Source of the DNA: Candidatus Saccharimonadota bacterium
GTDB lineage: Bacteria; Patescibacteriota; Gracilibacteria; BD1-5; UBA2023
Assembly (NCBI GenBank): GCA_963706795.1
Contig: OY970170.1
Coordinates: forward strand, 120,001 to 152,000
Direction: 5' to 3'
Length of the DNA stretch: 32,000 nt
A model generated the notes under the pieces. That model did not search any database. It worked only from the letters and a program-made list of their open reading frames with translations, and was not told the origin of the DNA. Shown in pieces: positions 9,099-32,000 of the stretch. Numbering within the stretch: position 1 is the first letter of the stretch; each line of letters starts with the position of its first letter. The position numbers were made by a program, and so were the translations under genes.

Positions 9099-9197
9099 AT
9101 GCTTATATAAAATGAATGCGGAGAGTGTATCGAAAAGCCCAGCTTTGACAAATAGTTTTTTGAGAAAATATGATCCATCTCTGCGTTCATCCAACAA

Positions 9198-9232: not shown

Positions 9233-9247
9233 GCTCTTTATCTGAGC

Positions 9248-15308: not shown

Positions 15309-15383
15309 TCCTCGGTAGCTCAGTGGTAGAGCAGTTGGCTGTTAACCAATTGGTCGTCGGTTCGAATCCGCCCCGGGGAGCCA
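15309..15383 (+). tRNA. tRNA-Asn (anticodon GTT) with encoded CCA
   Basis: Cloverleaf read by eye. Acceptor stem TCCTCGG/CCGGGGA, D-arm GCTC-AGTGGTA-GAGC, anticodon stem-loop GTTGG-CTGTTAA-CCAAT, T-arm with GGTTCGAATCC, and a 3' GCCA end. Confidence 0.9.
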
Positions 15384-15397
15384 TAGATAATCAAAAC

Positions 15398-15432
15398 AAT
15401 AATCCCGTGTTCTTCAAAGTTCACGGGATTAT
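15398..15432 (+). terminator. Hairpin after the tRNA
   Basis: 12-bp stem AATAATCCCGTG / CACGGGATTATT. The T-run that follows is weak. Confidence 0.45.
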
Positions 15433-15474
15433 TGCATTTCATCTAAACGATCCTAACATGAAGCAAACTCAACC

Positions 15475-16395: not shown

Positions 16396-16548
16396 CCACA
16401 GTACGAGAACAACTGAGGTGTAAAATATCTATTACTATTTCAGCACAGGAATGTACACCAATCTAACCATGCTCTTAGGAAAATTCTTGAGGTTACGTTA
16501 GACCATTTTCATATACTTTCTTTACTTACACGAAGTATTCTATAGGAT

Positions 16549-16575
16549 AAAAATGTAAAGTTAACTTTACATTTT
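16549..16575. terminator. Bidirectional hairpin in an AT-rich spacer
   Basis: AAAAATGTAAAGT-TAA-CTTTACATTTTT. Confidence 0.45.
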
Positions 16576-16596
16576 TGTTCATTCATTTTAGTAAAT

Positions 16597-16989
16597 ATGA
16601 GGCAGGAGATTCAAAAAAGTACTCTATATATCCTAAAAATTCTTGTCTGAGCCTTGGTTCTTGGATGAACTACAGGGATCACGCTATTCCTCTCCGAAAT
16701 GCCATTGGATTCACGAATGAAACCACTCATAATTGTTTGTGCGACACTGGTTTTATTGGGATATATCCTCATTGGAATCCGTATATATCACCGCATGGAT
16801 GAGCTAGAACAGAGTTTTTATGCTAAGGCATGTATGAATGCTATAGGACTCATTTTCCCTCTTCTCTTTATAGCAGGCATACTCGAGGCCGAAAATATTA
16901 TACCGCATATAAATACTCTCTGGATATCCCTCTTTTTAGTATTGACCCTTTCTATTAACGTAATGCTCGTTGACCGAAAATACCGCTAA
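16597..16989 (+). CDS. Small multi-pass membrane protein, 130 aa under table 25
   Basis: Track ORF 16699..16989 extends in frame to ATG 16597 through TGA 16648 and TGA 16666. This adds a TM helix (STLYILKILV-G-ALVLG-G-TTGITLFL). There are 3-4 hydrophobic helices in total. It stops on TAA. Confidence 0.6.
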
Positions 16990-17019
16990 ACCATATTTAA
17001 ATAATAGCCCCGCTCTCTC

Positions 17020-18048
17020 ATGTCTACCATTCTTGTAACTGGAGCATCTGGATATCTTGCGTCTTGGATCGTAGAATGACTTCTTCGCTCCGGACATACC
17101 GTACATGGAACTGTTCGCGATCTCAATGATGTCTCCAAATATTCACACTTAGAAAGTCTCGCAAAAGAGCTTCCTGGAAAGCTCCAATTATTTGCAGCAG
17201 ATCTACTTAAAGAAGGAAGTTTTTTTGAAAGTATGCAAGGCTGTGAAGTGGTTATTCATACTGCATCCCCTTATTTTCTTACCAAGCCAAAAGATTTAGA
17301 AAATGAGCTGCTTCGTCCTGCAATTGATGGCACACGAAATGTTCTGAGTTCAGTAAATATGACACCAAGTGTTCGGCGAGTTGTTCTCACAAGTAGCATT
17401 GTTACTTTATACAATAATCTAGCTGACATCTATCCAAATTCCGTAGACGAATTTGGAGAAAACAAAAATACAAACCCATTATATAATTCTTATGCCTACT
17501 CAAAGACACTTGCCGAGGCAACCGCAGTCGAAATGCAGGAGAAGCAGCAAAATTGGGACTTAGTAACGATTCATCCAGGCGCAATTTTTGGTCCATCACT
17601 CTCAAAACGTATTGATGCCACGAGCATTGATATGATGTGTAATTTTATTAAATGATCTTTCAAAAGTGGCGTACCAAGGCTTACGCTTGGGGTCGTCGAT
17701 GTCCGTGATGTTGCAGAAGCTCATATACAATCAGCACTCAGACCAGCTGCAGAAGGGAGATATATAGTCGTTGCAAAAAGCCTAACACTTCTCGATATCG
17801 CAAAATCTATTGATCTTCATGGAAGCAATATTCCAGATAAACTTCCAAAGTCAGAAATCCCAAAACCAATAATATGGCTTATGGCTCCGCTTATCTGAAT
17901 GCAGCGAAAATATGTCGCTCGCAATGTAGGCTATCCGATCATTTTTAATGCAAAAAAAAGTGAGCAAGGACTTGGTCTCGTGTACAGGAACACAAAAACC
18001 ACTCTCAATGATCACGTTACACAACTCATCTCTGCCAATATCATATAG
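17020..18048 (+). CDS. NAD(P)-dependent SDR-family oxidoreductase (extended SDR, cinnamoyl-CoA or dihydroflavonol reductase-like), 342 aa
   Basis: MSTILVTGASGYLASWIVE (Rossmann TGxxGxxG), the catalytic YxxxK motif (YAYSK) and three in-frame TGA codons. Track fragment 17233..17655 is in the same frame. It stops on TAG at 18046-18048. Confidence 0.8.
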
Positions 18049-18054
18049 TACTCT

Positions 18055-18279
18055 ATGAAAAACTCCCTCAAGAATCTGAGACAGGTACGTTTGATCGGTC
18101 AGAGCGAACTCGCAGATATACTCGATGTAAGTCGTCAAACAATCCACTCAATCGAAACTGGTAAGTATGACCCCAGCCTCTTACTCGCCTTTAAGATCGC
18201 ACATTTCTTTTGAGTAGATATTAGAGATGTATTCGAACCAGAACTCGGCAATATTGATAAATGAGACTCGCAGAAATAG
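18055..18279 (+). CDS. XRE-family helix-turn-helix transcriptional regulator, 74 aa
   Basis: LRQVRLIGQSELADILDVSRQTIHSIETGKYDPSLLLAFKIAHFF-G-VDIRDVF is a Cro/C1-type HTH. It contains two in-frame TGA codons and stops on TAG at 18277-18279. It is not in the standard-code track. Confidence 0.75.
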
Positions 18280-18317
18280 GCTTCACAAAGAAGGTCTGTG
18301 CCATGCTGCTCATTCCC

Positions 18318-18884
18318 CTACTCCCCCTTCCTATAATACAATGTCACCAACCCTGATTTAAAAGCTTTCTCTTCAATTAACCTAAGCTTTATCGCGTCCT
18401 TCACTCCTTCAAACAAAAACTTCCCACTCCCGAGTACTACAGGACTCACCGAGAGATGATATTCATCGACCAACCCAAGTTTTATGAGTGCATTTGCGAC
18501 TGTAGGACTTCCAAAGATGGTGATATTCTTCCCTGGCTTCTGCTTTAGGCTCACAATTTCTTCCTCAATATTTTCGCTAATAATCCTCGTGTTATTCCAG
18601 TCAGGAACAGTCATGGATTTTGAAAACACTATTTTTTCTACCCCCTCGATCCAACGTGCATGCTCGAGCTCATGAGGTGAGGCATTTGGATTTGATGGCA
18701 CGGTTTGCCAGTATTTCATTAATTCATAAGTAACACGTCCATAGATAGTCGTGTCCGTGGCTTGTACAATGGACTCTGCCCACTTTTCTAATTCTTCGTC
18801 ATAAGCAATCCAGTCCAGCATGCCATTTGGTGCTGCAGCAATGCCGTCGAGCGAGAGGTGACAAAAGACGATAAGCTTTCTCAT
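18318..18884 (-). CDS. Dihydrofolate reductase-like protein (RibD C-terminal domain family)
   Basis: MRKLIVFCHLSLDGIAAAPNG…IYGRVTYELM…ITIFGSPTVANALIKLGLVDEYHLSVSPVVLGSGKFLF fits the family pattern. The start is the internal ATG at 18882-18884. It stops on TAG. Confidence 0.75.
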   Translation of the reverse strand: MRKLIVFCHLSLDGIAAAPNGMLDWIAYDEELEKWAESIVQATDTTIYGRVTYELMKYWQTVPSNPNASPHELEHARWIEGVEKIVFSKSMTVPDWNNTRIISENIEEEIVSLKQKPGKNITIFGSPTVANALIKLGLVDEYHLSVSPVVLGSGKFLFEGVKDAIKLRLIEEKAFKSGLVTLYYRKGE

Positions 18885-19014
18885 ATGGTTTTGAGTTAAT
18901 ACTGGATACGAAGAGTAATTTTTTAGAGATTGGGATGTATTTTTTGAAGAGAAATACACAGGCCCAACACCGTAGTAATACAACTGAAAAGAGGTTATTT
19001 CTGACCTCTTTTTC

Positions 19015-19275
19015 TTACGATGAAGCCCGAGTCTGACTCTTTCGCTTCTCAAGGACCGTCCTGACATACAGCCCCTGTACTTGGAGTCGTGCCCATTCAG
19101 TCTTTCGGAGAAATTTGAGACTCGAAGCCTTACTTGGATTGCTGGCGAAGCAGTTGATATTGATCATTTCGGCGAGCTCCTCAAATCCATACTCTTCGAC
19201 CAAATAATCCAAGATCATAACAAGGGTTACACCGTGCAAAACTGCATCATTTCTATTGTTCGTGGTTGTGTTCAT
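19015..19275 (-). CDS. VF530/DUF2132-like small DNA-binding protein
   Basis: LHGVTLVMILDYLVEEYGFEELAEMININCFASNPSKASSLKFLRKTEWARLQVQGLY fits the pattern of that family, from memory. Confidence 0.6.
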   Translation of the reverse strand: MNTTTNNRNDAVLHGVTLVMILDYLVEEYGFEELAEMININCFASNPSKASSLKFLRKTEWARLQVQGLYVRTVLEKRKSQTRASS

Positions 19276-19293
19276 GCTTGGTAAAAATATCTA

Positions 19294-19740
19294 CTAGTTA
19301 ATTCCTTCTACGCACTTTTTGAAGTTCTCAAGTATCATCTGCCATCCTGCAGTCTGCATTTCGTGAGGATTTTGGTCTTCAGCATCAAATACTTCGGTGA
19401 CTTTGATGCCTTCAGATGTCTCCTCAAGCGTCACGTCCACGACCCGTCCTGCGTCGGTAAATGTGGATTCTTTGAGTTCACCAAGTGTATAGCTCATGCT
19501 CTTTTGGGGCTCAACCGATATATATTGGGCGCTGAGATCAAAACCAAAGCTGCCATCACGAGCTTCCATTCGAGTTGTAAATGTTTCTCCGATTTTTGGA
19601 GAGTCTCATTTAGCCCACGGACAATGCCATGTTGCCTCATCAGCAAATGCCCAATGAACGATATGCACAGGATTCCAGAGTGCATCCCAAACCTGTTCGA
19701 GTGGAGCCTGGATGGTGGTGGAGACGGTAAGTTTTGTCAT
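19294..19740 (-). CDS. SRPBCC-superfamily protein (AHSA1/START-like), 148 aa under table 25
   Basis: MTKLTVSTTIQAPLEQVWDALWNPVHIVHW… continues through TGA 19606-19608 into track ORF 19294..19569. It stops on TAG. Confidence 0.7.
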
Positions 19741-19866
19741 ATTGAGGATGATGAGAATGTAGGACTGAGATGGGTTTTGTAGAATATATTACTAATATGA
19801 TTTTAAACTACTTCATTTATAGTTAAAGTTCTAAAAACAGATTATCTCCAGATACCCATAACATCT

Positions 19867-20604
19867 ATGAAAAATATCATTTCTGTAGTCTTAATAAGCG
19901 CCACTCTCCTTGGTATTGCCTTTCTTTTTTCCACGCCACTTAAGCACTATGTAGGGCGCAATGATACGATTAGTGTCACTGGTCTTGGTGAACAGGAATT
20001 TGATGCTGATGTTGTACATTGGAATGTCTATTTTTCACGCAAAGCAGCCACTCTTCAGGAGGGCTCTAGCGCACTCAAGTCAGATGAAGCCGCGATACGT
20101 AAATATATGACATCGCGCAATATTCGTGAAGATATGATTTCTGCGGGAACTATTTCTTTCTCTCAAGAATTCACAAATACTACGGATGCAAAAGGCCAGA
20201 CCACCAGTGTCTTTAATGGGTATACTTTCTCGCAGTCGCTTACAGTATCAGCCGAAAAATCTACAGATCTCGACCATGTAGAAGCGGTTTCAAAGTCTAT
20301 CACAGAGCTTCTCTGACAAGGAATCGGAATTTCTTCATCCACTCCAGAATACATCTATACAAAATTGGCAGATCTCAAGATTAATTTGATTGCCAAAGCT
20401 TCCAGCGACGCACATTCTCGAGCCGAGCAAATCGCCAAAAACAGCGGAATGGATCTCGATAGACTCAAAAGCGCTGTTATCGGTGTACTTCAGATTACAG
20501 CCAAAAATTCTTCGGAAGCATATAGCGATATCGGGGCTTACAACACAGATTCTCGCAAGAAAGTAGCAGCGATCACGATTAAAACTCAGTACGAAATGCG
20601 ATAG
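19867..20604 (+). CDS. SIMPL-domain (DUF541) periplasmic or secreted protein, 245 aa under table 25
   Basis: It has an N-terminal signal anchor. Track ORFs 19867..20316 and 20365..20604 share a frame and are joined via TGA 20314-20316. The …ADLKINLIAKASSDAHSRAEQIAKNSG… segment is typical of SIMPL. Confidence 0.7.
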
Positions 20605-20683
20605 GCAATTGAGTGCTTTACGGACGTATGCAAGAGAGTAATTCGCAAGTTACATTGACAATATTTAACTGATCTTTAAATTA

Positions 20684-20715
20684 AAATAGTCCTCCAAAAT
20701 TGGAGGACTATTTTC
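20684..20715 (+). terminator. Rho-independent terminator
   Basis: Hairpin AATAGTCCTCCA-AAAT-TGGAGGACTATT followed by Ts. Confidence 0.65.
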
Positions 20716-20737
20716 AAACCAAAACAAAGGAATTTAC

Positions 20738-21493
20738 ATGAAATCTCGCCTAATCGCGACAATATTTGCTGGCCTTGCTTTTGCTGGTTCGGCTCATGCA
20801 GAACGCGTGATCCTTAATCAGTCAAAACTCGCAGTAAGTAGTCCTTTCTGGCCATACTTACCACATTTTTGGGAATTTGATCCAACAGAAAATCCTCCAG
20901 TAAATGGTATTTCCAAGTATGCTTGTGGGCATGCTGCATTGAAAGTTGCTGCACAATATGTATCGGGGAAATCTATAACTATCCCCGAATTACACACATA
21001 CTTTTCCGCTAACTACCAAACTTATGCGCTAGATCAGCGATGTGGCCAAAATGATTGGCATAAGGGCTATTTCTGTGCAAATCTCTACGACATGGAGGCA
21101 GCAGCTAAGCGACAGCTTAATTTACCAAACAGTAAACTGCATCTGGAAAGTCCTCGTTATATTAATGGACTTCCTAATTATGCAGCCTTCCTACAAAAGG
21201 TGAAGGACGGTGTGCGGAATAATTTCCCTGTAATTACCAGCTCTGGCTGGCAGGGAAATATGTCCTGGGGACACATGTTTGTAATTGTGGGCTTCAACAC
21301 CGATAATACAAGTCGGCCTGAAGACGCATGGCTTTTTATACGCGATGTAAAGGATCAAACCGCCACTTCAAAAGAAATGGATGACTGGGTCACAGTAAAG
21401 GAATTTGTTGACGCCATGAAAGGTACTCAATTAGGCAGAACATACGATTGGCAACCAGAAAATGGTTTTCAATTCTTATTCGTTAAGCCATAA
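20738..21493 (+). CDS. Secreted papain-fold cysteine peptidase candidate (peptidase C39-like)
   Basis: Signal peptide MKSRLIATIFAGLAFAGSAHA/E. Candidate nucleophile in YACGHAALKVAAQY, and a candidate His in WGHMFVIVGFN followed by FIRD. It stops on TAA and a terminator follows. Confidence 0.55.
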   Translation: MKSRLIATIFAGLAFAGSAHAERVILNQSKLAVSSPFWPYLPHFWEFDPTENPPVNGISKYACGHAALKVAAQYVSGKSITIPELHTYFSANYQTYALDQRCGQNDWHKGYFCANLYDMEAAAKRQLNLPNSKLHLESPRYINGLPNYAAFLQKVKDGVRNNFPVITSSGWQGNMSWGHMFVIVGFNTDNTSRPEDAWLFIRDVKDQTATSKEMDDWVTVKEFVDAMKGTQLGRTYDWQPENGFQFLFVKP

Positions 21494-21523
21494 TTTGCTA
21501 GCGTAAGACATATCGCTATATTT

Positions 21524-21556
21524 GAAGTCTAGATTAAATCTAGACTTCTTTTTTTG
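21524..21556 (+). terminator. Rho-independent terminator
   Basis: Hairpin GAAGTCTAGATT-AA-ATCTAGACTTC followed by T8. Confidence 0.7.
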
Positions 21557-21570
21557 ATCACAAAATTCCC

Positions 21571-22203
21571 ATGAAACAAAACCAAATACTTACAATTATT
21601 GCGATTTCAGTCTTGATTACATGACTTCTCGTATTCTTATGGAATTCTCCCTTGCGTTCAATAGATCAAACACATATAAATTCATGAAATAATAACCATT
21701 CTGAATCTCCTAAAATCAACGAAACAATTCCATCACCGGATTCGAATGGTAAACTTACACTCGCTGTATCTGATACTGCTTTATTTTACGGCACGCTCAA
21801 ACAAGATAGAGAAAAGATGGAAAAGATATTCCAGACATATTCTGGCACACTAATGGAATTCACTGTGAGTTTTGAACCAATTGGAGCGAACGGTAAAATA
21901 GGTACTTACGATGAAGATTTCCTCAAGAGCTTATTAAATACACCTTCACAAGTAGTATATATTAAGAATACAAGAGGACTCACCATTAGCACTCACGAAC
22001 TAGAACTTTTTAATAAATTTACACAAAATAAAAAACGAATTTTTCTCGAGGGCAATGTCTCCCTTGCAAGTGAAGAATGGGCACAGTGTAAAGAAATAGT
22101 AAGCAAAAATGTGCATCTTCTCTCGCAGATGAGTACTGTCTTAGAGAATAGGAATGTTACTGAAATCTGTAGTGAAAAGCCGGTGCTGCTTTTTAAGAAA
22201 TAG
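21571..22203 (+). CDS. Membrane-anchored hypothetical protein, 210 aa under table 25
   Basis: ATG 21571. N-terminal TM helix ILTIIAISVLIT-G-LLVFLW. Two TGA codons precede track ORF 21817..22203 in the same frame. It stops on TAG. Confidence 0.6.
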
Positions 22204-22320
22204 AGTCTATAGTCCATTTATTCAAAGCTTAAACCTTCTTTGTAACTGGGCATATACAAAAAACAGCCTCACCACGCTAAAAAAACCCTTTAATACTCAA
22301 AATTACTATCTCATCAGTAT

Positions 22321-23172
22321 TTAATTACTCTCCTTCTTTAAAATCATAAAGAGCGAACACCATCCAAAAAGCGCCTCAAACAGAAAATAGCCGGATAAAA
22401 AGATGAGCGCTAAATTCCATGAAGTAGAAATCGCTATAAAAAGAATCAGCACTGAGAAAACTATGCGCATCCAGCAATCAAAGGTACTAATATTTCTCGC
22501 GCCTATTTTAAGGTTTTGTGGATAGATCTTCCTAAGAAGGATCTTGAGAAGCATGCCAAAAGCAAAAGCAAGCACGAACAAGATCACAATCGTTCACCAG
22601 CCAAGCGGCGAGAGAATAAAATTTATAGGTGATTCATTAAAGAAATCACGTTTGATTTTTGGTACCAATGAAAGTGCATTTATGGTTTCCCGAAGATCAA
22701 AATTCTCAATCTCTCCTACTGCCAGAGAATATTTACTCGTATTATCCTGACTCGTTACACGAATTTCATATGATCAAGAACCTGCTTTTGATCGGTATTC
22801 GGTTCATTGCCAATAGGCATCATAACCGAATGGCTCAAACATATACTTCCATTGAGCATTCGAGCCACCCAAAATAGCTAATGGATGTGTGTAATCTCTG
22901 TTCTTAAAAATGGTAGCTGTCACATCCTTGTTTTGTCCGAGAATATCTGGCACCAAGATATTAACATAGAGGTCAAAAGATTCCTGTGAATCAATAGTAT
23001 ATATCTGGGGCTCACCTGATAGCTTTGCGTAGTAGGCTTTGGATATCTCAGGGGCATCAACAATGGTATTTGACTGATCTGGAATTCTTGGCTGATGTGC
23101 AAGTGCCACAGGGACAAATAAACAACACGCAAGCACAATACACCGACGGAGGTTCTTAAGAGGATATTGCAT
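22321..23172 (-). CDS. Secreted domain fused to a C-terminal DUF2892/YgaP-like two-TM domain, 283 aa under table 25
   Basis: Track ORFs 22804..23172 and 22321..22587 share a frame. Three TGA codons (22804, 22774, 22594) and no TAA or TAG lie between them. The signal peptide ends …VPVALA/HQPR. The C-terminus (…FDCWMRIVFSVLILF…GYFLFEALFGWCSLF) resembles DUF2892. Confidence 0.6.
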
Positions 23173-23275
23173 AGTAAGATGTTTAGGATCTTCCGCATCC
23201 TCAACTTCCTCCGCGCGGTATATGAAGACATGAGAGTATACTCAGAATAAACCAAAGTCATATTAACAAACAGCC

Positions 23276-24250
23276 CTATACTCCCACCAACATTTCCATC
23301 ACTCACCTCTCTTTCTCCGCTATTTCCTTCAAAATTTCCGACGCCTGATAGATACATGCGATATCTTTCGTATTACTCACTTCCTCAAATAATCGAGCAA
23401 CTTCCATCCACAGAAGTGCGATTTGAGTAAATGCTTCATATCCAAGTCGGAGTTTCTCTCAGCCTATGAGCTCGTGAGATTCTTTTAGGAAATCTCGATA
23501 TAGATTCCTAAACAGCGCACCTCCCGTGCCTGCTCTTTCCATCAGCATGGCCGTGGTGCCAAAATCCTCTGCGACGTCCTGACTCTGTTTGAACCATTTT
23601 ATGATCTCTGTACTGGTTTTGAGGATTCCTTTGTAGCTGATATTCGTAATAGGTGGATTGAGATATTCTGCTGCATTGTCTCGGATTGCAGTGAGAATAG
23701 TGTCCTTTATATCGAATTCATAGCCAGTTTTCTTCAAAAAATAGTACATATTCTTTGAGGCCATGGGTCATGTTTCGGCACGAGCGAGGGCGAGACTGTG
23801 GAGTGATGTTTTTACCATTCAACCCTGTTGTTTTGTGTCTACCAAATATGCCGAATCTACATCGTAGCCATACATCGCAACATAATGTCCTGCGAAATGA
23901 ATCGGGTGAGAAAAATATTCCAAATGATAACAGTCCAGTTTGAGACCTACGATGTATCATTCATCTATTAGATTCTTCACATTTTCCCAGGCTTTTTTGG
24001 GTGATGAAGTCTCATGGGTAGATAGGTCCAATTTGAGACTCTGTGCGATATTCTGAGTGACGAGATCGGGCTTGATTCGTCCGCCAATGAATGGACGATC
24101 CATGCCTTTCATATTCCAAAATATATAACTCAGCCCCTTACCTAGTCCAAAAAGCATCGGTTCAGAAAGCGTGATCCCCAATGAGAGTAGGATCGTTCCT
24201 GTAGCAGTAGTCTCGCAGTGTTGTCACTCGAATGGCTGGATTTGGAGCAT
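23276..24250 (-). CDS. BtrH-N/DUF4872-like protein (papain-fold), 324 aa under table 25
   Basis: MLQIQPFEGQHCETTATGTILLSLGITLSEPMLFGLGKGLSYIF… and HFAGHYVAMYGYD fit the BtrH N-terminal pattern. Track ORFs 23957..24181 and 23459..23764 share a frame. It has 6 in-frame TGA codons and stops on TAG at 23276-23278. Confidence 0.65.
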
Positions 24251-24442
24251 AGATAGGGGTTGGATTATTTTGACTACATTCTGATAGAAAACAGGATAGC
24301 AAGAGTCTGAGTGAAAGCAATCTTGAGGTCAGAATCATAGTGCTTGATTGTGAGTATTTGGATGATCGGGCGTAGGATTGAGTTTGCATACGATCAACTG
24401 AGCATACACTCATGCTGTTTAGCTATAGTTCCCTGCTCTCAT

Positions 24443-24928
24443 ATGTGATTCTGAGATATAAACTTTCCGCTGGTGATCATGCTTTTATGCGTGTTCATCT
24501 TGTTTCCTATAGGGCTTATCTGAAGTTGGTTATTATGGCGTGAGTACAAACAGAAAAACGCGGTTCAAAAGATCGCGATCTGTATACTTTACTACGCCGT
24601 AAGCTTGGGAATTTCGTTTGTGATAGCATGGTGACTCTTATACATGAGTGAAAACTTTCCTATTCTTCGATATAGTTTTTCGACAATGAATGAATGGTAC
24701 ACGCTTGATCCAGTCAGCATTCTTGCTCTGTTGATCGGATTTACTAGTGGATACCGAATAACACGAAAGGTTGCCCGCCCCCTACCTGGCATAGTGTGAA
24801 CTATGATTGTTTTCGTATTTTTAAGTGCTGCACTTGTTCTGGCTTACGCAGCCATCCATACTGAATGCCAACAAGAATTAGAGATGTTAAAATATCCTTC
24901 TACGTTTTGCGGTCTTTTTAAGAGATAA
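24443..24928 (+). CDS. Four-TM membrane protein, about 161 aa, visible only under table 25
   Basis: The frame is open from 24341 to TAA 24926-24928 and contains several TGA codons. Hydrophobic helices: PLVIMLLCVFILFPIGLI, IAICILYYAVSLGISFVIAW, VSILALLIGFTSGY and MIVFVFLSAALVLAYAAI. Start candidates are 24362, 24443 and 24479. Confidence 0.55.
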
Positions 24929-24935
24929 ATACTCC

Positions 24936-24982
24936 AAAAAAAATCACCTGATCGTAATAGATCAGGTGATTTTATTTATTTT
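24936..24982. terminator. Bidirectional terminator between convergent genes
   Basis: 13-bp stem AAATCACCTGATC / GATCAGGTGATTT (24941-24972), flanked by an A-run and a T-run. Confidence 0.7.
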
Positions 24983-26438
24983 AAAATGTTCCTTTGAGTC
25001 CGACATTGTAGACTGGTCCGCTTGATTTTCAATCTATGCGATCCTGGCGAACTCCTGCAAATACATCAATACTAGGACCCTTCCACACTCCGAGTTTTTT
25101 GGTTACTTCGAGCCCCACTCGACTTGAGTCGCTTGGTCCAAGTGGACTCTTGCCAGTTGAGCGGATAATCTCAGTGTAGGCACTTGCGGACATGTTCATG
25201 TTTCGAAGTGTAGCCTGTGCTTTGGAAGTATTTGCGAGTGCAGATACTTCTCGACTTACTGCGAGATCAAATGCACTTCCCTTCTCATTATCCTTGTGGG
25301 TGATGCCACCATATACCGTGTTTGATCCATAGGTATTTGGTGTATCCGTGGCTCCACTTTGGAGATTTGGGACGATATTTCTTGTGTGGATAACTCCGGC
25401 ATGGACTGCAGTCTTGGGATCGAGTACATACTTTGCTTGTACATTTCAGGAGACTGCCACTTCTCCAACCTGTCCTTTCCTCAGACCATGAATACTGAGA
25501 TCGAGATGATCTGCTAGTTGTACTTTTGCCTTAGTAGTCAATCCTGTCTCGATAGAGAAAGTATCGTTCACTGGCCATATCTTTGAGACTCCTGCCTGAG
25601 CTGCCGCTGCGTAGTAATCCCGACTCACATCTTTCTCTGAACCAATGCGCGTTTTTGAGACATTTATTTCACCAAAACCACGCAGGAGTTCATTACCTGA
25701 TTCGTATCCGAGGGTTGTATGAATCGTCTGAAGTTTGAGTCCTGCGATCTCATTTTCCTTGTATCCGATGCCTGCATATGTACCACCGATGTGCTTGTTA
25801 AGTGCAATTCGTTTCCCACGATTGGTGAGTTCAAATTCTACACCTTCTGGCATGTTTGATGGTTTTTTGAGCCAAGATTCTACATCGCGCATCGTGAACA
25901 TTTGTGCATTTACCTCGCGGTTGAGCGGAGTCTGGATTGCACCGATGATATCCCCTTTGTCGTTAGCGAGATAGTTGGTGAAGACATAGTTCTTGTTTTT
26001 TACTGCGTAGGTATCGAGGGCTTCTTCGATATTTCTCCCTGTATAAAGTACTCAATAGTCGGAGAATACAGTCTTATCTGCTACCTTCATAACAGTAATC
26101 GCATGTCCTAAATCCTGACCACCCACCGTTACAACTCCTGCGTCAATTCCCCATGCATTTGCCACTTGGGCAACCGTCGCATGGATACCAGTACAGACAC
26201 TCAGTGGAAGAGATTGTTCGCTGTAAGTGGCTTGTGCAAGATTGGAGAACTGTTTACCGAGTGTGGGAACTGGGAGAGGCTTCCCTGTTTGTGCTGTTTC
26301 TTGGTTGTAAGTAAACTTCAGGAGTTCACTTCCTAAAATATCAAGGAAAATGATCTTCTCTTCTTTTGAAAGTGTAGATCAGATGCGTACGAGATTGTCG
26401 CGGACGTATTTCTCATTTGATGTGACAGAAACCTGCAT
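24981..26438 (-). CDS. Transglutaminase-like Cys-His-Asp domain fused to a beta-strand-rich C-terminal region ending …VYNVGLKGTF, about 485 aa
   Basis: One frame is open from 26516 to TAA 24981-24983, with 4 in-frame TGA codons downstream of the chosen start (a fifth lies between the two start candidates), and it contains track ORF 25446..25901. Candidate triad: SVCTGIHATVAQVANAWGID, GHAITVMKV and FSDYG. The last ~330 aa have alternating hydrophobic residues and a terminal Phe. The start is ATG 26436-26438 or 26481-26483. Confidence 0.55.
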
Positions 26439-27459
26439 CAGAGGGAAGCGATGTAATAGCAAGGAGATTTTCTCCGTATGCATTCTGTGCTTTAATTGTA
26501 TGACTGCGCACTTTTTCTATATCGTACTTTTCATGGAAAATATCTCAAAAAGCGACCATATTTCATCTTAATTGATCCTCAATAGATCATTTAAGAAAGG
26601 TGAAACGATTTCTGAGCGCTTCCTCACTTTGTCCAACACTCCTATTAAGAGCAGATTCGGCTATAGCCTTTAAGCTATAGAGTCCATCTCTGCCAGACAA
26701 CTTAGTCTTTGCATCATTTTGCTTCTTGCTTATATCTGCAAGCTCAGCACTGTGGTCATTAATATATTTTCTTTCTGCATTGAGTGCCTTTATGAGCTCC
26801 TGGATCTTTGGATCATTGCTCTTTACAAAATACTGATCAGAGTCAGCATTAAATCCAATAAGATCTCCATTAGCGGCGGCAATATAGTCTGTCGATAAAT
26901 CATGTCCTGTTTTTGCCTTGTAAGAATCTATAATCGCCGAATATCCGTCTTGAAGAATCTTTCATTGTTTGTTCGTGACTTCAATAATAGCCTCAAGTGG
27001 CACAATGTCATTTGTTATTTTTTTAAGCGCTTCGATACTTGCAGTTTTATCCACAAGAGCAGCACTAAGTCTGCGCTCACCTCATGCAAAGTCTGGAGCA
27101 AAAGCACTCGCATATTCAGTGCCTCCAAGAGTTGGTAGATTACTTTTGGATTGATAACCAAATTTCATACTCACCGGAAAGGCGGGATCTTTGCTTGCCG
27201 CCTTAATAATATCTGCCCGAGCCTTCAGACTTTCTTGGGTCATATCAAGACGAGCTGCAGACGTATCAGCAAGGCTATCGAGTGAAACTTTCGTATCTTT
27301 CTCGCCCTTCTTTTCTGGAGCAGGCGGCAGATCTAAAGGATCAGGAATATCAAATCCACTATATGGATCAGTATCGTATGATGGAAGTTCGAGGGTCATA
27401 AACAAAGAATGTGAACTAATGTGTACTGATTTTCTGCAGAACTGCGACGTGTCACTCAT
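26254..27459 (-). CDS. Hypothetical protein, about 400 aa; its 3' end overlaps the next gene in the +1 frame
   Basis: Track ORF 27082..27522 continues through 6 TGA codons with no TAA or TAG until 26254-26256. Start candidates are ATG 27457-27459 (MSDTSQF…) and ATG 27397-27399 (MTLELPSYD…). The last ~55 codons look non-protein-like. Confidence 0.5.
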
Positions 27460-27610
27460 GTTCTTTTTGAAGAGAGCGAATAATGCGCATCTGAGTCTTT
27501 GGCTGCATCTTGGGGAATGCATCGCTCAAAAGTGCCTTCTCTTTATCATCAAAAGCGCAGGAACGAGCCATATAGAGCTCCATGAGTCGGTGGATCTGTG
27601 AATATTGCAT
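27359..27610 (-). CDS. Small hypothetical protein, about 83 aa
   Basis: MQYSQIHRLMELYMARSCAFDDKEKALLSDAFPKMQPKTQMRIIRSLQKEHE, then TGA (27452-27454). Under table 25 the frame runs on to TAG 27359-27361. A promoter-like element lies upstream. Confidence 0.4.
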
Positions 27611-27629
27611 ATGTCTGGTTATATCACAA

Positions 27630-27658
27630 ATACTAGCACACTTGGAAAATTCATGCAA
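27630..27658 (-). promoter_or_regulatory. Sigma-70-like promoter for the minus-strand operon
   Basis: On the minus strand: TTGCAT (27658-27653), a 17-nt spacer, then TAGTAT (27635-27630). It lies about 20 nt upstream of ATG 27610. Confidence 0.35.
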
Positions 27659-27816
27659 AAAACGACTCAAGCCAGCTGGATAAATTCGTAAAAGTGCAAA
27701 ATAATACGATTTACAGTGCACTAAACAAAAGATAACATCTTCTATTTGAGGTGTTCTCAGTTTGCACTCGTACAGAGAAAAGCTACAATCAAAACACTAT
27801 TCTCTTATAGCGCCAT

Positions 27817-28107
27817 ATGAAGAGATTTGCCACTCTATTGCTCATAGCAATATCATTTTTTTGAAGCGCGTCCTTTGTCCAAGCAAAGACTTATTATACG
27901 GGCCCTAAAGGTGGATGTTACTCGTATTCTTCCTCAGGTAAGAAGGTTTATGTCTCGCACCAATACTGCTCTCGCAATGACGAAGGATCGAATGCAGTCT
28001 ACAATAGCAACACAAACAAGACCTATTACACAGGTCCAAAAAACGGATGCTTCTACTACGGAGCAAGCTTAAAGAAAATATATGTCTCACATACGTACTG
28101 TAACTAG
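27817..28107 (+). CDS. Secreted miniprotein with two Cys-containing repeats, 96 aa under table 25
   Basis: Signal peptide MKRFATLLLIAISFF-G(TGA)-SASFVQA/K. It is followed by two copies of YYTGPK(G/N)GC(Y/F)xY…KK(V/I)YVSHxYC. It stops on TAG at 28105-28107. It is not in the standard-code track. Confidence 0.6.
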
Positions 28108-28113
28108 ATTTTT

Positions 28114-28452
28114 ATGAATGATTTACTCGAAGCAAATAGAGCTGACGAACAAATAAAAGCACTTCGTCAGCCAGCACCGATCATCGCCACAGACATCGTA
28201 CACGATGCATTTAAAAGAGTATTCGGAAGCGATATGCACTTCCCTGCTGGACAGCTTACTCAGGAAGTTGCCGACTTGCAGGATCGTGTGCACATGAGCG
28301 TGCTCGCACATCTTGATTTTAGACTCGAAACTGCGGAACCTCTGGTTGATGTGATCACTGGTATTGCCTTCAATGGAGAGATTACACAAACAAATGACGG
28401 CAGGAAAATTGCCTTTCAGGTGGAAGTACCAAATGAGGCGTTAGGATTATAG
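28114..28452 (+). CDS. Hypothetical protein, 112 aa
   Basis: The ORF starts 7 nt after the previous stop. It stops on TAG and a terminator follows. I recognise no motif. Confidence 0.55.
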   Translation: MNDLLEANRADEQIKALRQPAPIIATDIVHDAFKRVFGSDMHFPAGQLTQEVADLQDRVHMSVLAHLDFRLETAEPLVDVITGIAFNGEITQTNDGRKIAFQVEVPNEALGL

Positions 28453-28485
28453 AAAAATGACTCAGAATTTCCTGAGTCATTTTTT
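28453..28485. terminator. Bidirectional terminator between convergent genes
   Basis: AAAAATGACTCAG-AATTTC-CTGAGTCATTTTT. Confidence 0.7.
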
Positions 28486-28494
28486 ATAGTGATA

Positions 28495-31400
28495 CTAATT
28501 AAACCATCTTTTTGGTTTTGGATGAGCCTCAACTTGCTTCTGTAGAAGCTCGACTGCCTCAATGCCTTTCTCCATCTCGGCGACACTCTTGAGGCCAACG
28601 GGTGATTTTTTATCTACGATCTGTGCAAGTTTTGCGCGGACATCACGAACTACGGCAATTTCTTGTTTTCCTTCTGATCATTTATCCCCAAAGATGGCAT
28701 TCAGTTGAAATACATCATTATTCCATTTAGTATCCCACTTTGTTTCATTACCCGAAATGATTGCATCAAACTGCCTCTGGATTTTTGCAGGACTGAGATT
28801 GGCGAGTTTTTCCATAAAAATTGGATCGTTCTCGTGGGCATATTGGTACGAAAAATACGCAAGCGCGTCAATCATGGCATACGCTCATCGAAGCTCGTCG
28901 AATCTTGCGCGAATATCAGAACCTGACTCACTCAGACGAGTCTTTATATAAGCAGCTCAGCTTTTGCGAATGTCGAGGTATTGATTATTAACGTAAGCTA
29001 AGAGTTTTTGCTTTGCGATATCACCCTCAGGAGTGCTAAATGGCGCCATTTTTCTTCTGACAACATTGTCAGTAATAGCTGCTCTGCAAGGACCATAGTC
29101 TGCGCCATGACTCATGCCAATGCTCAACCCAAGGGAATCTTCAAAACAAGTATACGTAGTTACATACTCAAAGTTATCGCCATTACCGCCAGGATCTCGA
29201 TATCTTCATCCTCAGCCTGACCTTCATCTGACTATACGTGTTTTTTCAGTAATTCGAACCGAGAGGGTTCAATCGAATTTCAGGCTTGGTACTATAAATT
29301 GTGCTTTGGTATCAAAGGATTTATATACTAAATCTTTTTTAGCAAAGACCTTGATAATCCCTCGGTTTAAATCATCAGATGAACTGCTGACCACTTCTTC
29401 TTTTTTGCTGATAATCCAGTTTTTCAGCCCAGCATTTACAACATCTTCTTCTTTGTCGCTGGTGAGAAGAGGTTTTTGGAGACTGATCCCCACCATGGCA
29501 GCATCATGGGGCTGAGAAGCAGATAACAGAGATATTTCTTTTGTTTTCTGTTCTTCAAACTTACGAAGCTCTCGGTCGAGTTCTTCTAAAAATTTCTGAC
29601 GTTTTGTCTCATAGAGTTTGAGACTGAGATCAAAGAGAGAATTCTCGCGAATATCTGCGAGGCGAGCACTTTCGTCTTGGAGTGCTTGGAGTGTAGATTT
29701 GATATTGCGAATATTCACCTTATCAACCTCAGTAATACCGTGTGTACCGAGAAGTACGAGGTATTTATCCATAATCATTTTCATGATTTCTGGATTGACG
29801 AGCGACTCGCCTGAAGTCACGGGTGTCTCAAAATCGAGAATACCCCTCGAGGTGATATTTCGAACCATATTGATCGAGCCTTCCATTCCGCGATTTTGGA
29901 GTTCATTTGCAAAATCACGCAAGGCTGACTTCCTTGCTCTTCCTGTAAAATTATAGTTCGCCGCGTAGCTCGTTGCTAGATTGACGAGCCCTGATTTGCA
30001 AGAGACAAGATTACTCGTGTCATACCCATTTTTAGTCCAAGTTGTAGCCTGTGTATAGCAGCCTTGCAGTATACCGCCGTGAGTATTTCTAAAGAGGTCT
30101 TCTTGTATAATCATTTGATTATCCTGCAAATGACCGAGTGCGGCTGCGATTTGATCGAGACGATTCTTAATATCTGTTACATCACCCTGGATTTGGTCCA
30201 ATCTATCTAATACAATATCGAGTTTTTTATCTACACGATCAAAGCGCTCATGCATCTCTTTTTTAAGTTCGGAGATTTGTTTAGAGAGCTTTTCAAGCGC
30301 AGCCATTATTTGCTTATGCCTCTCTCCAGCAGGATCAGGTTTTTTAGCAAAGAGTCCTACGAGATTTACAGCCGCGCTCACCATGTTCCCTGTTGCAATT
30401 GAGCCAGCCATATCGCCTAATTTAAGCAGACTAATCGTCTCCATGACATTGACGAGATTGTCTGCGATGACCACTGCAGTTCAGATATCTCTTGCAGTCT
30501 CCGAATTCCCAAAAAGCTGTCCAAGACCCCGTGCTATATTCAAATAGTTACGAGTCTCTTGGTAAACTTCTTTAATCTGCTGCTTTTGAAGCATGAATGC
30601 CGCAGCAATAGCAGCTTCTTTTGCTTTAATGAGCACTTCTTGTTCAGCCTTTGCCTGTACATTTGTGAGCGTTTTGAGACCTTCGCGCATCACTTTTGCC
30701 TGAGCAACTAAATCAGCAAGCGTTTGAGCTTGGTTTTTGAGCGCATCTGTATTTTTACCAATCTTTTCCTGCATTTTCTTATTTACTTCATACAGACCAT
30801 CAGCCTTGTTGAGCAATAAGACAGTTGCTGGGTCCATGAAGCTCTTGTAATCAACCTTGGTGATATCTTTATCAATGAGCTGCTTTGTGAGAGCGCCAAG
30901 TAATTTTTGCTGATCTTTAGAAAGTCTCTCAGGATGATTGATGAGCTCTTGAATAAGTGGCTTTCCGATGTTTTCTGCAAATTTCTGGAACTTAAAATTT
31001 GCCTCCTGGCGAAGCATGTCTTCATCAATTTGAGCGTCTGTTTGCAGCTCTGCGAAAGATGATCAAACCGGAGAGAATGTTGTACTATTAGAGGCAAGCA
31101 CGATGGCCTCTTTTATAACCGACGTATATCCTATCATTTTACCAATAATCGACTCCGCGAGAGGAAATGCCTGATTCGCCAATATCGCCTTAGAGACCAT
31201 CTCTGCTGTATAACTCTGTGGGAGATGAGAGATCACTTTTGCAATATCTCTATCAGATATTTTTTGGCCATCACTTCTTGCCACCATCTTAATATTACTG
31301 TCAGTTTTGAGCAGTGCGAAAACAAACTGCTCCATCTTTCAGCTATCGAGCAGGGCTTTATTCACGTAGTCAGCAGTAAGCTGTTTTTCCATTATTTGAC

Positions 31401-31626
31401 GCTTCTCTATCTCGCTCGCATTCGCAATCGAAGGACTCGTCACCACTGGAGTTGCCAGTGTTGGCTGCGACTCCGCTGGCGATGCAAATGTGAGTGCTGC
31501 AGCAACTACCGCCCCCTGAATAGCGCTCGAAATAGATTTTCCTTCTCTATTTTTTGATGTGGGTACAAAAAAATCCCTCACCCCAAGGTTGTTCTGCATA
31601 ATTCCAAAGATGAAAAAATACTTCAC
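28495..31626 (-). CDS. Giant coiled-coil-rich protein of unknown function, about 1043 aa under table 25
   Basis: Track ORFs 31339..31626, 31063..31335, 30481..31017, 29269..30474 and 28678..28875 all share one frame. I translated every linker: they contain only TGA codons and no TAA or TAG. The stop is TAG at 28495-28497. The start is GTG 31626 or ATG 31599. The N-terminus has a hydrophobic stretch, AIQGAVVAAALTFASPA. Confidence 0.7.
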
Positions 31627-31830: not shown

Positions 31831-32000
31831 ATGGTGCAAATATTCGCGGCTTTTCTGTTGATTGTTGGGTATTCTCTCATGCTTCGAGGACTCATATTGG
31901 GCCAAGAAAAATCGATCAACGGATTTAGCTTTTTAATCTGGGGTTCCCTGAGTCTCTGCCTCGGCCTCCTTGCCTCTCACGAAGCAAGCGTCGATCCAGT
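31831..32000 (+). CDS. Membrane protein, 5' partial at the window edge
   Basis: The Shine-Dalgarno sequence AAAGGAGG lies 6 nt before ATG 31831. The sequence MVQIFAAFLLIVGYSLMLRGLILG…FLIWGSLSLCLGLLA is hydrophobic. The ORF runs off the window. Confidence 0.6.
   Translation, partial: MVQIFAAFLLIVGYSLMLRGLILGQEKSINGFSFLIWGSLSLCLGLLASHEASVDP

Follow-up and report, generated by a model that had tools for sequence, protein, structure and literature searches.

Code-25 CPR bacteria have been reported to possess elaborate surfaces for engaging their hosts (PMC8080830). Several described systems resemble parts of the locus studied here. Genomic islands linked to tRNA genes are variable regions with an integrase, an att repeat and a clear compositional jump. 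BtrH/DarH acyltransferases belong to biosynthetic clusters, and C39-type peptidase systems feature ABC-transporter fusions or a bacteriocin context. Type Va autotransporters join a passenger, preceded by a Sec signal peptide, to a C-terminal 12-strand barrel with a terminal Phe.

In this study, we analyzed a block of about 11 kb (20738-31626, both strands) within a window of 32,000 nucleotides, that is, the whole stretch of DNA analyzed. The block holds ten lineage-specific genes, numbered within a P1 to P11 scheme. The initial annotation had listed 11 coding sequences, two of which are one 805-aa gene, hereafter W805. We consider it rather probable that a TGA-recoded Gracilibacteria chromosome carries a lineage-specific variable region here, with the block as its right-hand part, and that the block is a patchwork, not one co-evolving system. 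Such a patchwork would comprise at least six units that are transcribed independently and differ in their histories. These units would share a destination and not a pathway, most products probably acting at the cell surface because six of the ten are exported or membrane-bound. It is at the surface that such host-dependent bacteria come into contact with their partners. The features are as follows:

15309-15383, plus strand: tRNA-Asn(GUU), found with ARAGORN and Rfam; probably the actual left boundary of the variable region
20683-20714, plus strand: terminator-like, 15-bp perfect hairpin after the SIMPL gene
20738-21493, plus strand: P1, 251 aa, Sec signal peptide (…GSAHA/ER) and papain-like C70/C39-like peptidase domain
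21524-21548, plus strand: 12-bp hairpin plus T-run after P1
21571-22203, plus strand: P2, 210 aa, orphan with an N-terminal TM anchor
22321-23172, minus strand: P3, 283 aa, signal peptide and C-terminal YgaP-like (DUF2892) TM tail
23276-24250, minus strand: P4, 324 aa, BtrH_N plus DUF4872, papain-fold BtrH/DarH-like acyltransferase type
24362-24928, plus strand: P5, 188 aa, orphan with 3-4 TM segments
24940-24973, no strand assigned: 14-bp hairpin flanked by A- and T-runs, between the convergent P5 and W805
24981-27399, minus strand: W805, 805 aa, a single gene where two ORFs had been annotated
27416-27610, minus strand: P8, 64 aa, a real, conserved gene 16 nt upstream of W805
27817-28107, plus strand: P9, 96 aa, signal peptide and two PBCV_basic_adap repeats with 2 Cys each
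28114-28452, plus strand: P10, 112 aa, orphan with no export signal, starting 6 nt past P9
28453-28485, no strand assigned: 13-bp hairpin with A- and T-runs, between the convergent P10 and P11
28495-31599, minus strand: P11, 1034 aa, probable signal peptide (…ALTFA/SPAES), long coiled coils and a Gly-rich loop

Genetic code, gene content and transcription units

TGA is a sense codon in the window, where long ORFs appear only under TGA read-through. Code 25 is in use: TGA is read as Gly across the window, since TGA codons occupy conserved Gly residues in Obg (GxGGxG motif), LeuRS (DAGMV) and P4. With MetRS, the top matches (48-63% identity) come from MAGs of Gracilibacteria or Patescibacteria, many of which contain in-frame TGA codons themselves, and the organism is accordingly a TGA-recoded Gracilibacterium. 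UGA(Gly) codons had been described as frequent in the block, and indeed they reach 10.9 per 1000 codons vs 3.7 in the upstream housekeeping genes, about three times as many. They are frequent even in P4, a gene of foreign origin, in agreement with the proposal that the block is native or long resident. Given this usage above the core-gene level, any import into the block is ancient.

Searches against Pfam, NCBIfam, PHROGs and PADLOC gave no housekeeping, phage or defence assignment for any block gene, which confirms the lack of housekeeping signatures stated in the initial annotation. Most of its domain calls were also borne out, namely C70/C39-like for P1, YgaP/DUF2892 for P3, BtrH_N plus DUF4872 for P4 and PBCV_basic_adap for P9. 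No family match was found for P2, P5, P10 and P11. Inspection of N-termini and hydropathy identified signal peptides or TM segments in P1, P2, P3, P5, P9 and probably P11, and no export signal in P4, P8, P10 and W805. Hence, an accessory, lineage-specific stretch rich in exported and membrane proteins is supported, in line with the elaborate surfaces described for code-25 CPR bacteria (PMC8080830), but the description as made up only of secreted, membrane and orphan proteins is loose, as it fits six of the ten proteins by their signals and not the other four. These four also weaken the surface theme.

Five transcription units, each bounded by a strong hairpin, had been proposed. Strand and spacing point instead to 6-7 units, and a strong hairpin followed by a T-run occurs at only four places (20683-20714, 21524-21548, 24940-24973 and 28453-28485). 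None was found at the convergent P2/P3 junction or after P3. The hairpin at 24940-24973 looks like a bidirectional terminator.

A probable tRNA-Asn edge, P4 and the history of the region

The order Obg-HATPase-MetRS-tRNA-Asn is conserved in the nearest genomes, whose MetRS is 62-63% identical. The tRNA-Asn gene adjoins MetRS in the related loci L011 and L013 too, and nothing beyond it, including any block gene, is common to them and the window. Synteny with the closest genomes thus extends as far as tRNA-Asn (15.3 kb) and is lost 5 kb short of the block. Because synteny ends there, this tRNA gene is the likely left edge, and the accessory region seems to start at 15309-15383 and not after SIMPL.

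At least one gene of the region has a foreign history. P4 matches BtrH_N and DUF4872 full-length (E 1e-39 and 1e-45) with intact Cys/His/Asp motifs, and scores 166 bits on the NCBIfam DarH model, below the equivalog cut-off of 300. More than 100 Bacteroidota proteins share 67-71% identity with it. This identity of about 70% indicates a transfer across phyla, followed by recoding: four of the six P4 TGA codons fall on Gly residues that are invariant or nearly so among 120 homologues. In Bacteroidota, the gene is solitary with variable neighbors, sometimes adjoining an IS1595 transposase and resistance genes. Unlike BtrH/DarH enzymes, P4 has no biosynthetic cluster around it, either here or in Bacteroidota, and is a cross-phylum import with six TGA-Gly codons. 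P4 would be a cytoplasmic acyl-transfer or peptidase-fold enzyme of the BtrH/DarH type, captured long ago from Bacteroidota and recoded since.

These data bring to mind a mobile element or genomic island that integrated long ago and reaches from tRNA-Asn (15.4 kb) to beyond 32 kb, with the block as part of its cargo. As in tRNA-linked islands, the variable region abuts a tRNA, exactly where synteny breaks, and includes a horizontally acquired gene, whose Bacteroidota counterparts sometimes lie near mobile and resistance genes. Moreover, L011 carries two serine-recombinase-like genes beside the same tRNA, and GC content is somewhat lower at 20-24 kb (0.375-0.40 vs 0.44-0.48 upstream). However, such recombinases occur in the relative and not in the window, which holds no integrase, transposase or phage gene and no repeat of the tRNA 3' end. 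A clear compositional jump is also absent, the far boundary lies beyond the window, and TGA-Gly usage above that of core genes indicates long residence. We therefore regard an island as unlikely.

The functional link proposed among the block genes is not supported. On that reading, the ten genes would form one cell-envelope or host-interaction module, for instance with proteases processing the surface proteins encoded alongside. The enrichment in signal-peptide and TM proteins would fit, as would the lineage-specific character of all genes with no housekeeping genes interspersed, and predatory and epibiotic CPR bacteria reportedly devote resources to surface proteins (PMC8080830). The close spacing of three Cys/His motifs, noted earlier, was confirmed and would also fit: P1 (C63/H179/D203), P4 (C12/H122/D138) and W805 (C402/H432/D447) each have Cys, His and Asp, all within 5.3 kb. 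BLASTP revealed no paralogy among these three proteins or elsewhere inside the block. Yet, the neighborhood was not conserved wherever it could be tested, and the proposed check for independent scattering of the genes went against a module in every applicable case (the tRNA-Asn flank in the nearest genomes, P4 in Bacteroidota, the P8/W805 pair beside gyrB, and P11, which has no detectable homologue). For P1, P2, P3, P5, P9 and P10, this comparison covered 26 Gracilibacteria loci of 4-22 kb, searched by tblastn. In addition, origins differ (Bacteroidota for P4, a family in other TGA-recoded genomes for W805, an orphan in P11), strands alternate with terminators between units, and P4, P8, P10 and W805 lack export signals. 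The relatives are distant, the nearest sharing 63% MetRS identity, so some synteny loss is expected and a module may be confined to the genus of the window organism. A single module nevertheless appears improbable to us, and a patchwork remains our preferred reading. The occurrence of three Cys-His-Asp folds in 5.3 kb is an observation that weighs against regarding the genes as unrelated.

W805 and its upstream partner

A frame-shifted operon of three ORFs had been annotated; it resolves into two genes, P8 and W805. One extra base at 26431 (AAA vs AA) splits W805 in the window. The gene is intact in an independently assembled and otherwise identical 12.9-kb contig, and three intact homologues support one gene, the homologues being single ORFs of 808-837 aa. 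The break lies in a short AAA/TTT run and is a single-base indel. It reflects an assembly error or a strain-level null allele, and not a programmed frameshift. That the region is decaying DNA, with W805 a pseudogene and the orphans non-functional ORFs, is very improbable: the frameshift and the lack of family matches for P2, P5, P10 and P11 (the last without a detectable homologue) could suggest it, but W805 is intact in the other assembly over 12.9 kb of identity and conserved full-length in other genomes at 30-36% identity, a frame as long as the 1034 aa of P11, with no TAA/TAG but 10 TGA codons, is very unlikely to arise at random, and the genes are densely packed, with terminators between them.

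No W805 relatives were found in GTDB species representatives, JGI metagenome contigs or IMG/VR, and the genomes behind those full-length members whose DNA could be recovered are TGA-recoded. P8 carries the motif L-E-x-Y-[LM]-x-[ER]-S-C-A-F…EK. Among full-length W805 orthologues, those with readable upstream DNA (L002 and L003-L005) are immediately preceded by a P8 homologue (tblastn, E 1e-8 to 1e-10). There the pair adjoins gyrB, and no other block gene lies beside it on those contigs of only 4.9-8.2 kb. P8 and W805 are the only block pair with conserved linkage.

The approximate layout of W805 comprises a helical N-terminal region (aa 1-385), a Cys402-His432-Asp447 domain (window 25841-26243) and a C-terminal OMP-like beta-barrel (window 24984-25840, ending in …GLKGTF). 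The barrel model is an AF2 model of P0001, a 36%-identical homologue and not the window protein itself, built from only 27 sequences, several of them with Trp where TGA should read Gly. Its pLDDT is mostly 85-96 across the barrel (aa 527-806). In Foldseek searches, its top-50 PDB matches were all outer-membrane barrels, the best being OmpG (TM 0.59-0.61, E 2e-6), with CdiB, BamA and autotransporter beta-domains also among the matches; a viral structure library gave the same picture. Strands show alternating hydrophobicity, and a C-terminal Phe is shared by several family members, W805 and P0001 among them. From this model, we are confident that the C-terminus of W805 is predicted to form an OMP-like barrel of 14-16 strands.

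The Cys-His-Asp triad does not vary among 12 active-type family members, and Cys and His are lost in about a third of the relatives. The transglutaminase-like call made earlier is in keeping with the motifs: as in Transglut_core (PF01841, clan CA), the order is Cys, His, Asp, with Cys opening a helix and His and Asp on the following strands. Spacing is about 30 residues from Cys to His and 15 from His to Asp, which we take to be similar to that in yeast Png1. Unlike Transglut_core proteins, W805 has no HMM match, one of 12 relatives touches PF01841 (E=0.047), and profile and fold searches of this domain gave no significant PDB match. Motif order and spacing are thus what suggests a transglutaminase-like identity.

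Like type Va autotransporters, W805 would place a passenger, here helical with an enzyme-like domain, before a C-terminal barrel ending in Phe. The family barrel is of the monomeric, transmembrane type, and the beta-domains of EstA, Hbp, AIDA-I and EspP are among its significant Foldseek matches. In contrast to these autotransporters, W805 shows no Sec signal peptide at its N-terminus and no Pfam autotransporter match, its family barrel has about 14-16 strands vs 12 and best resembles OmpG and CdiB, and a conserved 64-aa partner gene lies upstream. P8 and W805 may be read as a small helical partner and an autotransporter-like protein. The barrel would sit in a lipid outer layer, the cell's own or that of its host, and would carry or export the hydrolase domain with its Cys, His and Asp. 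Published work describes the bacterial lineage itself as lacking lipid A synthesis, PilQ and an outer membrane (PMC6851277; PMC12102498). An outer-membrane-type barrel fused to a cysteine-hydrolase-like domain, in a lineage thought to have no outer membrane, is the most interesting part of this locus.

The remaining proteins

P1 has no TGA codons. It scores 23.4 bits on Peptidase_C70 (AvrRpt2), above the gathering cut-off of 19, and just misses that of C39_2 (22.6 bits, cut-off 24). Like secreted peptidases of these types, it has a signal peptide and the CG-H…GH…D motifs, but it matches only weakly and over part of the profile (positions 71-135 of 141) and, unlike C39-type systems, it shows no ABC-transporter fusion or bacteriocin context. 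No homologue was found in JGI metagenome contigs. P1 would be a Sec-exported papain-like peptidase acting extracellularly.

P2, P3 and P5 are probably membrane proteins. P2 has the lowest GC content of the block (0.35), and the same gene is called on L001. P3 has an extracytoplasmic domain of about 160 aa, with no family assignment, between signal peptide and TM tail, the latter matching YgaP-like_TM (formerly DUF2892) with 32.2 bits vs a cut-off of 25.3. TGA makes up 42% of the Gly codons of P5. P9 (PBCV_basic_adap, 29 bits vs a cut-off of 20.4; repeats identical at 20 of 29 positions) may be a small secreted protein of the disulfide type that shares a transcript with P10, which has no TGA codons. 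Finally, P11, with 10 TGA codons and coiled coils at about aa 405-500 and 620-740, is probably a large secreted coiled-coil surface protein.

Genetic code and gene content of the block

The block at 20738-31626 had been put forward as a candidate cell-envelope or host-interaction module, an interpretation that is only partly supported by our results. We found an accessory, long-resident and surface-biased stretch that lies inside a larger variable region, and the available sequence evidence points to independent origins of its genes. Runs of lineage-specific surface and orphan genes are known from host-dependent CPR bacteria. Viewed as a module, the block is unremarkable, and nothing indicates cooperation among its genes; what deserves follow-up is the recoded, Bacteroidota-derived gene P4, and the P8/W805 pair.

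When read with table 11, the window breaks up into short ORFs, with genes chopped at TGA; taking TGA as sense restores long frames (e.g., 1007 and 1051 codons). TGA codons fall on the conserved Gly of the GxGGxG motif of Obg and of the "DAGMV" motif of LeuRS. Because TGA aligns with conserved Gly residues in these two proteins and also in P4, the code of the window was assigned as 25 (UGA = Gly), and the window proteins were re-translated with it. The best matches of MetRS, in a set of one genome per GTDB species, were MAGs of Gracilibacteria, "Peribacteria" and Patescibacteria at 48-63% identity, and in-frame TGA is also present in the MetRS of many of these MAGs. These comparisons indicate that the source is a TGA-recoded Gracilibacterium to which no species representative is closely related.

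The genes upstream of the block are ordinary (GNAT, LeuRS, a T2SSE/PilB ATPase, Obg, an HATPase_c_2 protein, MetRS, tRNA-Asn, APH, an epimerase, HTH_3, RibD_C, VF530, AHSA1 and SIMPL). The LeuRS gene (594-3587, minus strand) contains a NUDIX hydrolase domain at aa 400-506 (PF00293, 38.3 bits against a cut-off of 21.1), directly after an editing domain that is cut short (positions 1-141 of 185 in PF13603), and two of its three TGA codons lie inside this insert. Two tracts of about 1.8 kb each, 3615-5410 and 7534-9247, show no convincing ORF even with TGA as Gly; the peptides from their candidate frames, which hold 6-9 TGA codons, are implausible.

TGA makes up 16% of the Gly codons in the block versus 5% upstream, or 10.9 versus 3.7 per 1000 codons, and GC dips to 0.375-0.40 at 20-24 kb. 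The abundance of TGA-Gly codons, found also in the imported P4, agrees well with the earlier view of the block as accessory and long resident. Under code 25 the block holds ten genes, matching, where the two overlap, the independent gene calls of L001, a 12.9-kb Logan assembly contig of run ERR12037365.

Genes of the block (window coordinates, strand, description)
P1: 20738-21493, plus strand, C39-like peptidase with signal peptide
P2: 21571-22203, plus strand, protein with N-terminal anchor
P3: 22321-23172, minus strand, signal peptide and DUF2892-like membrane tail
P4: 23276-24250, minus strand, BtrH-like papain-fold protein
P5: 24362-24928, plus strand, membrane protein
W805: 24981-27399, minus strand, Cys-His-Asp domain and predicted C-terminal beta-barrel
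P8: 27416-27610, minus strand, 64-aa protein
P9: 27817-28107, plus strand, PBCV_basic_adap protein with signal peptide
P10: 28114-28452, plus strand, protein of no Pfam family
P11: 28495-31599, minus strand, coiled-coil protein with plausible signal peptide

The gene content of the initial annotation was largely correct, apart from three points that we correct: the number of genes and the "frameshift", the terminators, and which proteins carry export signals. A strong hairpin followed by a T-run occurs at only four sites (20683-20714, 21524-21548, 24940-24973 and 28453-28485), and none was found at the P2/P3 junction or after P3; contrary to what had been stated, the transcription units are not each bounded by a strong terminator. 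Possible operons are limited to P8-W805 and P9-P10, with gaps of 16 and 6 nt, and perhaps P4-P3, which lie 103 nt apart with no hairpin; the remaining units are on opposite strands or have a hairpin between them. By hydropathy, P1 and P9 carry signal peptides, P2 an N-terminal anchor, P3 a signal peptide and three C-terminal TM segments, P5 3-4 TM segments, and P11 a plausible signal peptide; no export signal or TM segment was detected in P4, P8, P10 or W805. The secreted and membrane theme attributed to the block stands for the first five of these proteins and plausibly for P11, and does not extend to the last four.

The C39-like peptidase assignment of P1 is borne out by a Peptidase_C70 match (PF12385, 23.4 bits, above the cut-off of 19), a C39_2 match just below its cut-off (PF13529, 22.6 bits against 24), the signal peptide and catalytic residues placed by motif only (C63 in YACGHAAL, H179 in SWGHMFV, then D203). 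No relatives of P1 were found in JGI metagenome contigs. The tail of P3 (aa 226-281) likewise matches YgaP-like_TM/DUF2892 as first described (32.2 bits, cut-off 25.3). P9 matches PBCV_basic_adap (29 bits, cut-off 20.4) and has a second repeat, 20/29 identical by self-alignment. P2, P5, P8, P10, W805 and P11 have no Pfam match beyond coiled-coil-region noise, and a search of 5.8 billion clustered proteins, limited to those sharing exact 5-residue words, returned no homologue of P11. P1, P4 and W805 each retain an intact Cys/His/Asp motif; paralogy among these three proteins was rejected on comparing them. After P11, a further membrane-protein gene (MVQIFAAFLLIVGYSLMLRG…; 31832-32000, plus strand) starts and runs off the window, so the non-housekeeping stretch may continue beyond 32 kb.

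A variable region with genes of different origin

The nearest genomes (L010, L011 and L013) are syntenic with the window across Obg, the HATPase protein and MetRS; in L011 and L013, tRNA-Asn lies next to MetRS. Beyond tRNA-Asn these distant relatives share nothing with the window, neither the APH-SIMPL segment nor P1-P4. On this comparison the variable region begins at tRNA-Asn, at 15.3 kb, and not at 20.7 kb. Loss of synteny next to a tRNA gene is a feature of tRNA-linked genomic islands. Unlike such islands, the window contains no integrase or recombinase, and a search within it for an att-type copy of the tRNA-Asn end as a flanking direct repeat found none; the far end of the region falls beyond the window. 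Two serine-recombinase-like ORFs lie directly beside the same tRNA-Asn in L011 (JBEICN010000035.1, 2960-6075), which suggests that this gene is an integration hot spot in the lineage. A 26-nt direct repeat (24/26 identical) is present at 15543-15568 and 18272-18297, one copy inside the 5' end of APH and the other between HTH_3 and RibD_C; it may be what remains of an APH gene that was duplicated or disrupted.

The BtrH_N (135 bits, cut-off 29.7) and DUF4872 (154 bits, cut-off 28) matches of P4 are both full length, confirming the BtrH-like papain fold proposed before, and P4 scores 166 bits against the NCBIfam equivalog for the DarH BtrH-related acyltransferase, under the cut-off of 300. P4 has 4654 homologues at E<=1e-10; the best 120 of them are 67-71% identical, and all the organism-named ones among these 120 are from Bacteroidota or Kapabacteria, such as Pedobacter, Chryseobacterium and Chryseolinea. 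In the genome of Pedobacter polaris and in homologue-bearing metagenome contigs, the gene stands alone among unrelated neighbors, sometimes adjoining IS1595, erm-type or linB-type genes, and no homologue of P3 or P5 was found near it. Four of the six in-frame TGA codons of P4 align with Gly in 118-120 of the 120 homologues. The roughly 70% identity to Bacteroidota proteins, the solitary occurrence there and the TGA codons at conserved Gly indicate that P4 is an old cross-phylum import that has acquired its TGA-Gly codons since. P4 is a clean natural case of a gene from a standard-code phylum that now carries six in-frame TGA codons, whose positions show what the codon means and that GGN drifted to UGA after transfer.

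P8-W805 and P11 are distributed differently. P8-W805 orthologues are convergent with gyrB in L002 and L003-L005, and no other block gene is present on these short contigs (4.9-8.2 kb). No common origin or shared distribution emerges among the genes compared with large protein databases, P4 being of Bacteroidota type, W805 having 29 representatives and P11 none; neither is adjacency kept in related genomes, which are distant and represented by short contigs. The proposed check of co-occurrence and synteny in related genomes went against a module: no block gene is shared beyond tRNA-Asn, and P4 and P8-W805 occur in other contexts. In all, three independent tests, made with distant relatives and short contigs, speak against the functional link that had been drawn between the block genes. 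A prophage or defense-island origin was rejected, as PHROGs and PADLOC gave only weak coiled-coil-region matches, P11 had no tblastn match in phage genomes, and an IMG/VR scan with W805 was negative.

The P8/W805 gene pair

The initial annotation described a three-ORF frame-shifted operon that we resolve into two genes, P8 and W805. L001 is identical to window positions 15325-28273 but for one base: the window reads AAA at 26429-26431 and L001 reads AA. With the extra base removed, the second and third ORFs become one frame of 805 aa. The homologue P0001 (808 aa, 36% identical) aligns across the junction, over 97% of the length, and two further full-length homologues have 837 and 812 aa. Because the gene is intact in L001, P0001 spans the junction and full-length homologues exist, we attribute the split to a one-base indel of this assembly or strain and reject a programmed frameshift, as the run is only 3 nt and the shift is absent in L001 and all homologues. 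The one-base assembly difference matters for the annotation of the source genome.

Sequence comparison also indicates that P8 is a real gene. A P8 homologue lies directly upstream of the 837-aa (L002) and 812-aa (L003-L005) orthologues (tblastn E 1e-8 to 1e-10); these homologues are 54% identical to each other, and the family shares the motif L-E-x-Y-[LM]-x-[ER]-SCAF…EK. No P8-like ORF precedes the shorter paralogue P0017. In L003/L005, a 626-aa gene with a paralogous core domain (1-1881) precedes both the 812-aa orthologue and its P8-like neighbor, so the W805 family occurs there in tandem.

With P0001 as query, exhaustive HMMER searching of 1.84 billion representatives returned only 29 W805-family proteins, 3 of them full length and the others sharing the central domain in different architectures. 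No relatives were found in GTDB species genomes, JGI metagenome contigs or IMG/VR, the family had no match in PDB sequences, PHROGs, PADLOC or NCBIfam, and Pfam gave no family for the 21 relatives searched. Every full-length member whose DNA could be recovered is from a TGA-recoded genome; a few distant members are not.

Predicted fold of W805 and the cell envelope

The central domain of W805 carries a Cys, His and Asp that are invariant in twelve "active-type" members, at spacings of about 30 and 15 residues, and the triad is followed by the motif Y-x-x-D-x-x-G-x-I-x-G-x-x-x-T-P; about a third of the family has lost the Cys and His. In the 12-member alignment, Trp was changed to Gly by hand at a few positions of three table-4-translated sequences, an edit whose TGA origin was checked for P0004 and P0017 and which leaves the Cys, His and Asp columns unaffected. 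The transglutaminase-like label given to this domain finds support in the order of the triad and in its placement in a model of the P0002 core domain (pLDDT 70), with Cys at a helix start and His and Asp on the following strands. The best PDB fold match of this model has an E of 0.09, with only short local papain-like matches (USPs, AvrPphB), a PDB profile search found nothing, and Transglut_core (PF01841) is marginal in one of twelve relatives (E=0.047) and unmatched by W805 at E<0.1. Since the fold matches are not significant and the profile searches are negative or marginal, we regard the label as plausible but unproven.

The full-length structure was likewise modeled from a homologue, P0001, rather than from W805 of the window. 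The AlphaFold2 model (27-sequence alignment, mean pLDDT 76.7) divides into three: the N-terminal 380 residues are helical and of low to medium confidence, positions 388-520 form an alpha+beta domain, and positions 527-806, where pLDDT is mostly 85-96, form about 14-16 long antiparallel strands. The top 50 Foldseek matches of the P0001 model in the PDB are all outer-membrane beta-barrels, led by OmpG (E 2e-6, target-normalized TM 0.59-0.61) and including CdiB, BamA, porins, TonB-dependent receptors and autotransporter beta-domains; a viral structure library likewise returned autotransporter and porin barrels. Several strands of P0001 and W805 show alternating hydrophobicity, and several family members end in Phe, including W805 (…GLKGTF) and P0001 (…TINKQF). 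The C-terminus first noted as beta-rich is thus upgraded to a predicted OMP-like barrel. The N-terminus of W805 (MTLELPS…PYSGFDIP) is conserved with P0001 and has no hydrophobic segment or signal peptide; given the conserved MTL(L)E…PYxGFDIP sequence, the start codon is correctly placed.

With a predicted C-terminal barrel that ends in an aromatic residue, W805 resembles classical autotransporters (T5aSS) in layout. Unlike these proteins, it has no N-terminal Sec signal peptide, about 14-16 predicted strands instead of 12, and no match to the Pfam Autotransporter family; membership in T5aSS fails on all three counts. A predicted monomeric OMP-type barrel without a signal peptide has no ready explanation in a lineage reported to lack lipid A synthesis, PilQ and an outer membrane (PMC6851277; PMC12102498). 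Two readings, equally unorthodox and even jointly improbable, may be considered. These Gracilibacteria might have an outer lipid layer of their own in which beta-barrel proteins reside. Alternatively, the barrel might be targeted to a Gram-negative partner's outer membrane; Vampirococcus, a code-25 relative in culture, is a predator of Halochromatium (PMC8080830). Under such host targeting, P8/W805 would represent an undescribed effector class of TGA-recoded CPR epibionts or predators that lack an outer membrane. W805 would be exported without a Sec signal, and its barrel, with a beta-signal-like C-terminal Phe, would insert into the outer membrane of the host or prey, possibly exploiting the host BAM machinery. 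The resulting channel or anchor would then deliver the Cys-His-Asp hydrolase domain. In combining an uncharacterized Cys-His-Asp domain with a confidently predicted OMP-type barrel and no signal peptide, this family of about 800-aa proteins provides a concrete handle both on the nature of the envelope and on how a Gram-negative host is breached.

P0027 (L093 3078-4784, GCA_004196275.1), a distant relative of the Cys-His-Asp domain, carries a normal signal peptide. Its neighbors are archaeal-type genes (a presenilin-like SPP, TrmB and an archaeal CCA-adding enzyme); therefore, the domain also occurs outside the CPR bacteria. The records of P0003, P0004, P0015 and P0017 are table-4 translations with 19-40 in-frame TGA codons, which indicates that they come from TGA-recoded genomes, and TGA is read in them as Trp where relatives show Gly. 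Mistranslation of this kind will degrade alignments and structure predictions in code-25 lineages.
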